A DNA stretch of 8,279 nucleotides. Source: a virus. Lineage: Duplodnaviria > Heunggongvirae > Uroviricota > Caudoviricetes. The notes under the pieces were generated by a model, which was not told where the DNA came from, ran no database searches, and worked only from the letters and a program-made list of their open reading frames with translations. This document shows, piece by piece, positions 1,146-6,322 of this stretch. The position numbers were made by a program, and so were the translations under genes. The stretch's first letter is position 1. Every line of letters starts with the position of its first letter. The stretch covers positions 1 through 8,279 of IMG/VR virus record IMGVR_UViG_2695420456_000001; one strand, 5' to 3'.

Positions 1146-1222
1146 TGGCACGTTGTACTGGATTCGAACCAGTGACCGATTGCTTAGAAGGCAATTGCTC
1201 TGTCCGACTGAGCTAACAACGC
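1146..1222 (-). tRNA. argO: tRNA-Arg (anticodon UCU)
   Basis: Manual cloverleaf on the reverse complement: acceptor GCGTTGT/ACAACGT, D-arm GCTC..GAGC, anticodon stem ATTGC/GCAAT with loop CTTCTAA, T-arm ACTGG-TTCGAAT-CCAGT, discriminator G, encoded CCA. The symbol is assigned from gene order by analogy with the ileZ-argN-argO cluster of Stx phages. Confidence 0.8.
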
Positions 1223-1235
1223 ATGATGCTGATAA

Positions 1236-1312
1236 TGGACCGCCATCGGGGACTTGAACCCCGCACAGCCAGCTTCGAAGGCTGACGCTCTATCCCGATG
1301 AGCTAATGGCGG
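1236..1312 (-). tRNA. argN: tRNA-Arg (anticodon UCG)
   Basis: Reverse complement folds with acceptor CCGCCAT/ATGGCGG (a C1-G72 pair), D-arm GCTC..GAGC, anticodon stem TCAGC/GCTGG with loop CTTCGAA, T-arm CGGGG-TTCAAGT-CCCCG, discriminator T, encoded CCA. The symbol is assigned by position only. Confidence 0.75.
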
Positions 1313-1319
1313 TATGTGA

Positions 1320-1395
1320 TGGTGGCCCTTGCTGGATTTGAACCAGCGACCTGGCGATTATGAGTCGCTCGCTCTCACCACTGAGCTAAAGGGCC
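1320..1395 (-). tRNA. ileZ: tRNA-Ile2 type (anticodon CAU, lysidine-type; a plain scan would call it Met)
   Basis: Reverse complement GGCCCTTTAGCTCAGTGGTGAGAGCGAGCGACTCATAATCGCCAGGTCGCTGGTTCAAATCCAGCAAGGGCCACCA has a perfect 7-bp acceptor, anticodon loop CTCATAA, T-loop TTCAAAT and encoded CCA. It closely resembles E. coli ileX as recalled. Confidence 0.85.
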
Positions 1396-1433: not shown

Positions 1434-1435
1434 TA

Positions 1436-1534
1436 TCATCCGTTCTGACTGACTACATTCTGAACTTCCCTGACCGTCTGCTCAAAACGCCCGCTCTCCA
1501 GCTCAACGCCAATTGCACGACGCCCCAGCGCCAT
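1436..1534 (-). pseudogene. C-terminal remnant of a DNA methyltransferase (about 32-42 codons)
   Basis: Minus-strand translation ...SVKAAMALGRRAIGVELESGRFEQTVREVQNVVSQNG* resembles the C-terminal AdoMet-binding region of beta-class N6/N4 methyltransferases (LGRRxIGxE). There is no catalytic region upstream; the frame runs into the 1558..1586 terminator hairpin. Confidence 0.3.
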
Positions 1535-1557
1535 TGCTGCTTTGACGCTACGGACAT

Positions 1558-1767: not shown

Positions 1768-1794
1768 AGAAAAACCCGCTCAGCGGCGGGTTTT
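1768..1794 (-). terminator. tR'-like intrinsic terminator about 45-70 nt downstream of the pR'-like start
   Basis: Stem CCCGC/GCGGG (extendable by A-T pairs), loop of 6 nt, followed on the minus strand by UUUUU. A T-run on the other side could allow bidirectional function. Confidence 0.6.
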
Positions 1795-1843
1795 GCTACT
1801 TTGCCATCACGTACAAAATCGGCAAAATATCAGATTTGCATGA

Positions 1844-1872
1844 AATATATGCCTTTTAATCTACTTTTGCAA
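1844..1872 (-). promoter_or_regulatory. pR'-like late promoter immediately after the Q-like gene stop
   Basis: On the minus strand TTGCAA (1872..1867), a 17-nt spacer, TATATT (1849..1844). Predicted start near 1837, with a short leader ending in the 1768..1794 terminator, the arrangement expected for a Q-dependent late promoter. Confidence 0.45.
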
Positions 1873-1876
1873 TACT

Positions 1877-2545
1877 TTACTGTGAAAATGCCGCCTTTTG
1901 TTTTAAACGTGTTCTCGTCACGAACAATAAAGCCTCATTATCCAGCCGGTGAAAAATGTGTTTCATTGCAACCCAGTGGCCAGTAAATGTTTTGGACCAG
2001 TTTTTGGTTGTCACTCCCGCCAGTAATGCCAGCTCCTGGTATTCATAACCTTCCCCACCAAAAAGTTCTGCTTTTACTGCCTGCGCCGCCAGCCAGATTA
2101 ATTTTTTCAGGCGTTCCTGCGTTTTCCCTGCAATTTTTCTGGTACCAGATTGAGTATTAAATTCATTCCACGCCCACTGTGTTATCGCGATCTGATATTC
2201 CCAACAAATGCTCTCGCTGTAACACCACAACAACCAGGCTTTATGATGTTCTTCAAGAGACAGAACAGCCCGCCGCCACGATGATGTCGAAAACTCAACC
2301 GGACTGACCAGAGGAATTGACGTCCCCTTCGCCAGCGATTGCTTCCCCGGGATTGGTGGATTATCCCGCGTTATCATTTTTCCAGTCACTTCATCGCGGT
2401 ACCGGATTTTTTTTCGCCTGTAACGCCCTGTATCGAACATGGCATTCTCTTGCCAGGCTTCAAACTGACCTTTTGTTGCCCCACTCAAATCAGCGGTAGC
2501 GATAATGAGCTGCTCACGCACAAACTGTAAATACTGGTTATTCAT
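1877..2545 (-). CDS. Putative late-gene antiterminator Q-like protein (222 aa), not lambda-Q type
   Basis: Position is canonical: directly after rusA and directly before the pR'-like promoter, tR'-like terminator and tRNA trio. Likely start is ATG 2545, overlapping the rusA stop as ATGA; the track start at 2551 is GTG. No lambda-Q zinc-finger Cys pattern is present, so the family is uncertain and the call rests on synteny. Confidence 0.55.
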   Translation of the reverse strand: MNNQYLQFVREQLIIATADLSGATKGQFEAWQENAMFDTGRYRRKKIRYRDEVTGKMITRDNPPIPGKQSLAKGTSIPLVSPVEFSTSSWRRAVLSLEEHHKAWLLWCYSESICWEYQIAITQWAWNEFNTQSGTRKIAGKTQERLKKLIWLAAQAVKAELFGGEGYEYQELALLAGVTTKNWSKTFTGHWVAMKHIFHRLDNEALLFVTRTRLKQKAAFSQ

Positions 2546-2904: not shown

Positions 2905-3191
2905 GGCTTAATCTTCCCCTCCTTCAGCAGTATCGCCTGCGTCCTGATCACGCCTTCAAGGTGGTAAAGTCTGGCGTCTTTGTTGTCGAGGTTATGGGTG
3001 CGTCGGTCGATTTCATCGTGACACGCGCTACAAGCCCATGCGCCGATCAGGTCGTCAGGCTTTATTCCCGTTCCGCAAATTCCAGCCATCCGGTAATGTG
3101 CCAGAACTGTAGTTTCAGGGTTTCCATTGCATACGCCGTAAATACGTACCTGGCATTCTCTGCCGCGCGCTTCTTTGCGTAGGTTAGCCAT
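2901..3191 (-). CDS. ybcO: YbcO-like DUF1364 protein (Cys-rich, putative nuclease)
   Basis: 96 aa, MANLRKEARGRECQVRIYGVCNGNPETTVLAHYRMAGICGTGIKPDDLIGAWACSACHDEIDRRTH..., closely resembling DLP12 YbcO as recalled. It sits directly upstream of rusA as in DLP12. Confidence 0.8.
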   Translation of the reverse strand: MANLRKEARGRECQVRIYGVCNGNPETTVLAHYRMAGICGTGIKPDDLIGAWACSACHDEIDRRTHNLDNKDARLYHLEGVIRTQAILLKEGKIKP

Positions 3192-3913
3192 TAAGCAGCC
3201 TCCCCTGTTACTTTCAGCATTCCGTTATCGAGCAGCTTTCTGGTCAGCCACTGTTGACCACGCCCGGTGATTTTTGTGGTGAACGATATCTGTATTCCGT
3301 GATTTGTATTGACCGCTGTTTCTTTCACTGTGAAATAGCCGCGATCCATATATTCCTGCATTGGCACATTGCGCCGGGAACCTGAAGCAATAAGGATTTT
3401 GTGTTCGCGCATCCACGCAAACAGTTTGTTTGGACCAATACCAACAACCTTTGCATAGTTTCCAATCAAAATTCCGCTGGCCTCGCCAACGCGATCGGCA
3501 AACTCAACTTTAGGTGCGGCAATTGCGAGCTGGTTTTCCAGTTGCATTTTCTGCTCAGCAAGATCAGCAGCAAGGCGCAACGCTTCTGGTAGAGTTTTGG
3601 GGATATTAACCGCAGCGTCTTCAAGCTCTCGCCAACGGTCAACAAGACGAGCGGTGAATTCCGGCGACAACTGGGCAACGACAATAATGCTGTCTCGCTT
3701 ACCTTGTTCGCCTTCGAATACATACACACGAAAACTTTGATTTAAGCCTAACCCATTGATTCTTCCACAATCCTCAATTTGAGGATGTCGGATAACACCA
3801 TTTTTAGCCAGCATTTCGATAGTACGTTTCACATTGTCATGACGCTTACCTGTAAGCTCAGAGATTTCAATGCTGGTCATTTTGATGACGTTGCTATTTA
3901 TCAGCTCGTTCAT
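3191..3913 (-). CDS. Phage antirepressor (Rha-type N-terminal domain, KilAC/ANT C-terminal domain)
   Basis: N-terminus ...MTSIEISELTGKRHDNVKRTIEML... is Rha-like; C-terminus ...YAKVVGIGPNKLFAWMREHKIL...NVPMQEYMDRGYF... is KilAC-like. The second ATG (3913) has GAGAGGA 7 nt upstream; the first ATG (3919) is only 1 nt from it. The stop overlaps the ybcO start as TAATG. Confidence 0.8.
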   Translation of the reverse strand: MNELINSNVIKMTSIEISELTGKRHDNVKRTIEMLAKNGVIRHPQIEDCGRINGLGLNQSFRVYVFEGEQGKRDSIIVVAQLSPEFTARLVDRWRELEDAAVNIPKTLPEALRLAADLAEQKMQLENQLAIAAPKVEFADRVGEASGILIGNYAKVVGIGPNKLFAWMREHKILIASGSRRNVPMQEYMDRGYFTVKETAVNTNHGIQISFTTKITGRGQQWLTRKLLDNGMLKVTGEAA

Positions 3914-3946
3914 TGTCATGTCCTCTCATATTGAAAATTCACCAAT

Positions 3947-3987: not shown

Positions 3988-4692
3988 TCAGTAGCGATGT
4001 AGTGAAGGAGGTAATTCTTTGTTCTTAAGCCTTACCCATGCGGAAAGATTCGTTGGTCCGTCTGGCTCATTAATATCAACATCTCGTGTGTGATTGATTA
4101 AAACGTCTCTCGCCATTCCAATAACATACGAGAACTCATGACCGTAGTCGTAACATCTGCCGGAATAGTTCGATTGAATTTGCTTTAGCGCTGGATACAA
4201 TTCGCGGAATAATGCCTGTGAGCGGTTAGCATAATCCCACAGCCATACAAGGCTGTCTGTTTCTTTTGCGGAAAGCCCGTTGAGCTTCTTCTCTTGTTTG
4301 CCAGTATTTTTCTCGCACTGGCTGAAATAGCAGTCTTCCAGTTTTTCGAACACTTCCCACGCCTGATCGGTTTCGAGCATTTTGGCGTGACGGGCTGCTC
4401 CGCGTTCTGTCCAGAGGATGAGGGAGCGGGCTTTCGGGGAAATTTGTAACCCTCTTAAAGATGGTTGCAAATTTTGTGAGTTACTTAAAGTAACCCGCAA
4501 AATTTTCAACTCATCACCAACAACCTTGAAAAAGTGTTTACCCTCAACAAAACGCTCGGAATTACGGGTGTAATTTACTTTGATGTTGTTGATCTCGGTA
4601 CAGTAAAGCTGTGCCAGTAACTCGGTAGTGATAACGGGAATTTGGTTGTGTGTAATTGGGGAAAGAGTTTCGACAGAAATCTGAGTGGCCAT
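3988..4692 (-). CDS. ORF6N-domain phage protein (Roi/antirepressor-like)
   Basis: N-terminus ...[10 protein letters not shown]...[11 protein letters not shown]...[16 protein letters not shown] is characteristic of ORF6N/Bro-N-related domains. Probable start is ATG 4692 (GGAG 9 nt upstream) rather than the track start at 4710. Confidence 0.7.
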
Positions 4693-4856
4693 AACGATAA
4701 CTCCGTACATTTGGACATTATCGCCACCGTCAGGTGCTAATCATCATGGTGGCGAACTGTGCGGGGTTAGCACTACCGGGTACGGAAACCGGCGAGCCTT
4801 TCGGCTCCCCCACACAGCCCGCCATAAATCGCGAATGTGACTGTGCAAACGATATG

Positions 4857-5676: not shown

Positions 5677-6119
5677 GCAGCCCTACCTTTTCGTTGTGAC
5701 CATTCATACTCTCGCCGGGAGTCATCACTCCACCGCACGTTGCGCTCTGAGCCGAACCAGAACATGATTTCGATAAGCTCAGTCATGCTGGCCTTCCGCA
5801 TTTTGCTGGTACGCACGCCAAGCATGACAACGCCACCGTCGATACCAGGCCCACTTCGTTGCTCCAGTTTTTTGGTCTTAAGCCACAGGGCAGTGAACAG
5901 GTCTTTCCAGTCTTCCGGCGCCAGCCGTTGACCATGCCATAGCACCTGACGCGAAACATCGTTCAGCATCGGCCACATACGGTCATTCTGCGCTTTGCTG
6001 CGCCTGGGTTCTTTAACGTGGACTTCGTGGGGTGACTTGTCGTCGATGGGTAGTGAGAGAATGGCGTCTATGGCGTTATTTCTGATTGCTTCGTTGCGAA
6101 GCAGAAAGGTTTGCTTCAT
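5673..6119 (-). CDS. ninB: Recombination protein NinB (148 aa)
   Basis: MKQTFLLRNEAIRNNAIDAILSLP...DVSRQVLWHGQRLAPEDWKDLFTA...[23 protein letters not shown] aligns with lambda NinB as recalled. ATG 6119 has GGAG upstream; the track start at 6221 is an N-terminal over-extension. Confidence 0.85.
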   Translation of the reverse strand: MKQTFLLRNEAIRNNAIDAILSLPIDDKSPHEVHVKEPRRSKAQNDRMWPMLNDVSRQVLWHGQRLAPEDWKDLFTALWLKTKKLEQRSGPGIDGGVVMLGVRTSKMRKASMTELIEIMFWFGSERNVRWSDDSRREYEWSQRKGRAA

Positions 6120-6312
6120 CTCCTGCTCTCCGGTTCCATTTTTCAGCCGCCGCAGCAACTGATGGTGCCCATGCCCCCCTGGCTTCACAGAGGTCACATT
6201 CTGCATAGCCCCACACATCAATATTTATTCCGGCCTCAACCCACAGACGAGCATTACCGCCGCAAAACGGACATTCTTTTAGCTTTGGCTGGGTTAATGA
6301 TAGGTCGCTCAT
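6076..6312 (-). CDS. lar: Lar-family restriction-alleviation protein (78 aa)
   Basis: Zinc-ribbon pattern KECPFCGG...CDLCEA followed by AAEKWNRRA, the hallmark of Lar/RalR from Rac. ATG 6312 has AGGAG 5 nt upstream. The 3' end overlaps the ninB start by 44 nt in another frame. Confidence 0.7.
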   Translation of the reverse strand: MSDLSLTQPKLKECPFCGGNARLWVEAGINIDVWGYAECDLCEARGAWAPSVAAAAEKWNRRAGDEANLSASQRSNQK

Positions 6313-6322
6313 GCTCACTCCT

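Follow-up and report, generated by a model that had tools for sequence, protein, structure and literature searches.

An 8,279-nucleotide stretch of viral DNA, referred to here as the window, very probably carries the late-gene switch of a lambdoid Escherichia coli prophage, a switch of the phage 82 type in which a Q gene is followed in turn by a late promoter (pR'), a pause element and an intrinsic terminator (tR'). For this assignment we used the DNA to establish family membership, gene order, sequence elements and conservation, whereas antitermination itself, the Q-binding site, the pause and the transcription start are taken over from the biochemistry of phage 82.

The gene neighbourhood is that of a lambdoid prophage. 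A prophage of E. coli 2013C-3264 (NZ_CP027544) matches the whole length of the 8.3-kb window at 99.5% identity. The genes of the window are all on the minus strand and follow the order typical of lambdoid phages, which runs 5' to 3' from replication protein P and ren through a nin region (ninB, an adenine methyltransferase, ninE, two antirepressor-like genes, ybcO/DUF1364 and rusA) to Q. Beyond Q, the NZ_CP027544 prophage continues on the same strand with three tRNA genes and small accessory genes, and then with carbohydrate esterase, holin, lysozyme, terminase and capsid genes. Q thus closes the nin/delayed-early region, and the late operon begins directly 3' of it in the same orientation. 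The two antirepressor-type genes of the nin region adjoin one another and are unlike (3191-3919 and 3988-4710, minus strand), one carrying Rha and KilAC domains and the other ORF6N and the P22 antirepressor C-terminal domain. The rusA stop and the Q start overlap in an ATGA (2542-2545, minus strand) with no ylcG/orf45 between them; phages 82, 434, PhiR47_2, Gifsy-1 and CobraSix have this gene, which in phage 82 lies between rusA and Q.

The Q gene occupies 1877..2545 on the minus strand (ATG at 2545, TAA at 1879-1877) and encodes 222 amino acids. Q proteins form three families, Q21 (PF06530), lambda Q (PF03589) and Q82 (PF06323) (PMC9388147), and an earlier note on this DNA had proposed a Q outside the lambda family, to be checked by a profile search against Q families. 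The search placed the protein in the Q82 family over its full length: PF06323 scored 304.8 bits against a cut-off of 25 (E 4.6e-91), with residues 4-219 aligned to positions 1-216 of the 220 in the profile. The protein also matched PHROG 304, 'anti-termination protein Q-like' (E 2.5e-107). In the Pfam profile search PF06323 alone scored; at E <= 0.01 there was no match to the lambda family (PF03589) or to that of phage 21 (PF06530). NCBIfam profiles returned zero matches. Aligned without gaps to phage 82 Q (CAA63332, from X92588, a record that covers the nin-Q region of that phage), the window protein has the same residue at 172 of 222 positions (77%; E 9e-128). Its cysteines number just two, C108 and C114, so the CxxC...CxxC zinc finger of lambda Q is absent, as the note had said; with lambda Q (PF03589) and with phage 21 Q/AlpA there is no detectable sequence similarity. 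The exact protein sequence is already public under the name 'bacteriophage antitermination protein Q', and RefSeq gives the same name to the gene in a 99.9% identical stretch of NZ_CP027544 (WP_001064891.1).

On structure, a sequence search of the PDB turned up no Q82-family protein with an experimental structure. Its one match, a marginal one to a Listeria phage endolysin (1xov; E 0.002, 20.8 bits), falls in a low-confidence part of Q and was set aside as chance. An AlphaFold model built on a 52-sequence alignment that included distant members reached a pLDDT of 78; one built on 26 sequences of 70-89% identity reached 52 and was discarded.

From the biochemistry of phage 82 we infer that the protein would act as the late-gene antiterminator. 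That it could instead be another regulator, such as one that simply activates transcription from the late promoter, is a reading that some record labels invite, N15 gp40 being called a 'late transcription activator' and the phage 434 protein a 'transcriptional activator/anti-terminator'. We consider this hardly credible for a protein that shares 77% of its residues with phage 82 Q, for which antitermination has been reconstituted in vitro (PMC4914094), and next to a promoter that in all relatives examined is directly followed by a conserved terminator, an arrangement that is sensible only for antitermination. The 'different regulator' that the earlier note had kept as an option is unsupported.

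The window protein differs from phage 82 Q at 23% of positions and is seven residues shorter (222 against 229) because of a CAA-to-TAA nonsense change at codon 223; the ancestral stop remains in frame seven codons 3' of the new TAA. Such a change could mark a decayed remnant in which the premature TAA inactivated or weakened Q, leaving a promoter that makes a short leader and late genes that are no longer switched on. Decay is present nearby in the same prophage, where, according to the annotation of the closest RefSeq genome, a Lar-family gene farther 5' (about 6076-6318) is frameshifted and a DNA methyltransferase pseudogene fragment lies between the terminator and the tRNA genes (1435-1548, minus strand). 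However, the loss in Q is limited to the last seven residues, 222-residue forms are widespread (the cluster of protein P0005 has a member on at least 1000 contigs), and the late-gene set of the NZ_CP027544 prophage is otherwise complete. Moreover, phage 82 Q with a C-terminal His tag is active (PMC4914094), which suggests that the C-terminus tolerates change. We regard a decayed switch as improbable and retain the reading of a phage-82-type switch.

For comparison with the window we assembled related loci, 80 from viral contigs together with phages 434, PhiR47_2, Gifsy-1, Klebsiella phage 2 LV-2017, Enterobacter CobraSix and Cronobacter phiES15. The block comprising promoter and pause element was recognisable in all collected relatives.

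The promoter lies directly after Q. Four bases (AGTA) separate the Q stop from the -35 hexamer TTGCAA (1867..1872), which is followed by a 17-nt spacer, AAGTAGATTAAAAGGCA (1850..1866), and the -10 hexamer TATATT (1844..1849), all on the minus strand; the earlier note had placed the promoter correctly. Its term 'near-consensus', in turn, was an overstatement. Agreement with the consensus extends to nine of 12 positions (4/6 plus 5/6), and the same scan returned nine sites with a 9/12 match in 2.3 kb, against 2.9 expected, so that pR' is unremarkable when taken alone. What raises it above chance is its context: the composite motif of promoter and pause element has a single occurrence in the window, none of 200 shuffles produced it, and it is kept in relatives from five other genera. 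The -35 TTGCAA is invariant or nearly so across 82 related loci and the Klebsiella, Enterobacter, Cronobacter and Salmonella phages, and the same hexamer is found in the last 17 nt of X92588, TTGCAAAACTGGATTAA. The -10 hexamer, too, is conserved among the related loci. We rejected an overlapping candidate at 1886-1858 (TTCACA-17-TAGATT, likewise 9/12), which is off both the conserved register and the published AAA start.

The spacer is a candidate Q-binding element. Its mean conservation of 0.91 is well above what is usual for promoter spacers, and the block AAAAGTnnATTAAA is kept in relatives with as little as 51-62% protein identity. In phage 82 the Q-binding element sits between the -35 and -10 hexamers (PMC4914094), and by analogy the spacer at 1850..1866 would be bound by the window's Q. 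Our comparison with the phage 82 late promoter rests on published positional features and on the 17 nt of promoter that end X92588. Over the compared part of the spacer the window reads AAGTAGATT and phage 82 AACTGGATT, a difference of two substitutions (GTAGAT versus CTGGAT).

With a Q that is 23% divergent and shortened, and a spacer with two changes, specificity and activity equal to those of phage 82 are assumed. The differences from phage 82 in Q and spacer need not mean a different specificity, since recombinants that mix Q and spacer types exist. One related locus (L078) is a natural recombinant that joins an 82-like Q to a window-type spacer; in another (L073) the N-terminal two-thirds of Q are window-like, the spacer is of the 82 type and the pause region is of the window type. 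For the same reason, and because linkage confounds it, we discarded co-variation of Q type with spacer type as evidence on specificity.

The start site and pause element were assigned by register with the published features of the phage 82 late promoter. That promoter has a wild-type AAA start and a -10-like pause element, nearer consensus than that of lambda and preceded by an extended -10 TG (PMC5001585; the TG is also noted in PMC3326312). Insertion points at +9, +15 and +18 bound the element, and downstream of it come GCC at +15-17, an AT-rich segment from +18 to +25, a U at +25, and pauses at +25 and +26 (PMC5001585). In the window we place +1 at the first A of an AAA at 1837 (minus strand), 6 nt past the -10 hexamer, as this is the sole register that gives AAA at +1-3, GCC at +15-17 and U at +25. 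A transcript from 1837 would begin AAATCTGATATTTTGCCGATTTTGT, with all the published phage 82 features in register. The putative sigma70-dependent pause element (1821..1832, minus strand) consists of TG at +6 and +7, the -10-like TATTTT from +9 to +14 and GCC at +15-17; the element is present in the letters, and the pause is predicted, by homology with the 82 late promoter, at +25 (U) and +26 (1812..1813, minus strand), the putative site of Q loading. The pause predicted at +25 compares with +16 in lambda and +18 in phage 21. From +18 to +25 the window reads GATTTTGT, while AATGTTGT stands there in loci with a Q that, over the three thirds compared, matches that of phage 82 at 96-100% identity.

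Two hairpins are predicted in the leader. The first (1797..1829, minus strand; dG -10.3 kcal/mol) pairs +9 to +17, the transcript copy of the pause element, with +33 to +41, and close relatives show weak covariation in it (79% of cells paired, with two pairs altered on both sides). The second is the intrinsic terminator tR' (1770..1793, minus strand; U-tract 1774-1770), which lies between the promoter and the late genes. Its stem, AAACCCGC/GCGGGTTT (1793-1772), has five G-C pairs and a dG of -14 kcal/mol, and, counted from the putative start at 1837, it covers +45 to +68, in agreement with the earlier note, which had put a terminator about 45-70 nt 3' of the promoter. A simple terminator scan missed this hairpin, probably because part of the T-run is absorbed by the stem. 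In relatives, 93% of cells in the tR' stem are paired and six of its seven pairs are altered on both sides. PhiR47_2, Klebsiella phage 2 LV-2017, CobraSix and one related contig locus (L072) carry unrelated hairpin-plus-T-run terminators at the equal position, and the occurrence of non-homologous terminators at one distance argues for selection for a terminator at this spot after pR'.

Agreement with the window, averaged over 57 unique segments from the 82 related loci, shows how far the unit extends. Mean agreement is 0.87 at the 3' end of Q, 0.94 in the promoter (0.91 in the spacer), 0.94 from +1 to +26 and 0.75 in the terminator, and it drops to 0.35 from +71 on. A fall of this size just past tR' indicates that the unit is inherited as a block and that the terminator forms the mosaic boundary.

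Taken from phage 82 biochemistry (PMC4914094, PMC5001585), the course of events would be as follows. The delayed-early transcript across the nin region would end with Q (1877-2545), and sigma70 holoenzyme would recognise pR' and initiate at about 1837. Without Q, polymerase would stop at tR', at about +68, and a short leader RNA of about 68 nt (1770..1837, minus strand) would be the sole product. Retained sigma70 would re-bind the TG-TATTTT element and cause a scrunched pause at +25/+26, at which Q, sitting on its binding site within the spacer, would move onto the paused polymerase with the assistance of NusA. The Q-modified polymerase would then pass tR' (1770-1793) and, farther on, two terminator-like sites at 1132-1115 and 536-516, with read-through covering the tRNA genes and the small accessory genes and continuing into the lysis and head genes.

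The genes that such read-through would reach first are the three tRNA genes at 1146..1395 (minus strand), identified by ARAGORN, Rfam and RefSeq as one with a CAT anticodon (tRNA-Ile in RefSeq), Arg-TCG and Arg-TCT. Their position makes them the first cargo 3' of tR', and gene order points to their dependence on Q read-through. We take the cluster for the one that Shiga-toxin phages carry as ileZ-argN-argO; within the window it is followed by no stx genes. On the same basis of gene order, it is plausible that the Q allele governs the tRNA and cargo genes 3' of the switch. Beyond the tRNA genes lie two small minus-strand ORFs of 69 and 74 amino acids (569-778 and 831-1055, respectively; PHROGs 4280 and 2571), which are accessory 'moron'-like genes of the late leader region. 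The two terminator-like sites, both found by the terminator scan on the minus strand, flank this pair: that at 1132-1115, after the tRNA genes, lies 5' of the 74-residue ORF, and that at 536-516 lies 3' of the 69-residue ORF.

Comparison with known phages places the window close to phage 82. The two share the PF06323 family, a Q gene after rusA, the -35 TTGCAA and a terminator soon after the promoter, and, in the transcribed region, the AAA start, the TG-extended -10-like element ending at +14, the GCC at +15-17 and the U at +25. Phages 434 and Gifsy-1 have Q proteins that are 74% and 66% identical, respectively, to that of the window, and both have the same promoter motif, closely followed by a terminator. 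The Q stop and the conserved promoter of Gifsy-1 lie about 0.8 kb apart, with a cassette between them, whereas in the window the promoter comes directly after Q; it abuts or overlaps the Q end in the window and in most relatives. The Gifsy-1 cassette (L003, 2178-3036) contains isrK, a C4-type antisense RNA with its a1/b1 targets, and the antirepressor STM2616.

The nucleotide that creates the TAA in Q also turns a TTGC-N6-TTGC repeat on the opposite strand into TTGC-N6-TTAC (1867-1880, plus strand). The phage 434 record annotates the TTGC-N6-TTGC repeat as a CII site and the paQ -35, and, if paQ is real in the Q82 family, the window allele may by this change have lost it.

The leader of the window has a counterpart in IsrJ, a small RNA of Salmonella Gifsy-1. 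When a 96-nt stretch was searched, the Rfam isrJ model (RF01393) scored 20.5 bits (E 0.038), below the gathering threshold of 37, with model positions 1-75 aligned end to end to 1840-1770 of the window. An Rfam scan of the relatives placed isrJ at 100 bits at 3047-3121 of the Gifsy-1 locus (L003), just after the conserved promoter at 3015-3036, and at 62.6 bits within 2174-2279 of the CobraSix locus (L006), where it comes straight after Q and its conserved promoter. IsrJ and the window leader occupy an equal position, from a Q82-type late promoter to its terminator, share the 5' end AAAUCUGAUAU, and have the same layout of a hairpin followed by a terminator within about 70-75 nt; the central hairpin of IsrJ is at the equivalent place but is unrelated in sequence. 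Judged by sequence and position, IsrJ is the terminated late-promoter leader of a Q82-type switch, and the window leader is its diverged, sub-threshold and positionally equivalent counterpart. We found no such description in the literature on IsrJ that we consulted (including 10.1101/787010), although it may be stated elsewhere. Matches of isrK (18.3 bits) and of several leader and sRNA Rfam families to the window leader were rejected as apparently driven by the terminator hairpin.

These matches bear on a further possibility, namely that the promoter-to-terminator RNA of about 68 nt is the main product in the lysogen and acts in trans as an sRNA like IsrJ or the StxS of Shiga-toxin phages, beside its role in antitermination. 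IsrJ is reported to be an abundant RNA of about 74 nt that is required for efficient invasion (10.1101/787010), and in Gifsy-1 and CobraSix its position coincides exactly with the leader of this type of promoter. PMC7547250 describes a late promoter in EHEC that is always active and whose short terminated RNA is regulatory. In the window, the isrJ model aligns with the leader end to end, if weakly, and a hairpin at a conserved position precedes the terminator. Yet the isrJ score is under the Rfam gathering threshold, homology to isrJ is missing from the middle of the leader, and covariation in the leader hairpin is weak. We therefore treat an sRNA function as possible but doubtful, an addition to the antitermination switch in which the leader would still be the terminated product of pR'.

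Considered jointly, the traits of the unit, which are about 77% identity to phage 82 Q, truncation at codon 223 and two spacer changes, might mark a distinct allele group within the Q82 family. Such a group might have a Q-site preference of its own, might have lost CII/paQ antisense control through the nucleotide that creates the TAA, and might use its constitutively made leader of about 68 nt as an IsrJ- or StxS-like sRNA in the lysogen. We hold this combination to be unlikely as a whole.

The Q82 family has been under biochemical study since the 1980s, and the unit described here is already known as a textbook Q82-family antitermination switch whose gene is annotated as Q. With the gene annotated, the family long studied and the unit present in about one-fifth of complete E. 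coli genomes (approximately 1,090 of 5,426, counted at a unit coverage of at least 80%), it carries little weight as a discovery. For annotation it is of use in marking where the late operon begins and in pointing to the switch that would control the tRNA, accessory and lysis genes on induction. The window also contributes one more naturally occurring version of the late promoter and pause element of phage 82. Q82 is the one Q family without a solved relative in the PDB sequence search, and natural allelic pairs of Q and promoter could help to map how the Q-binding site is recognised.
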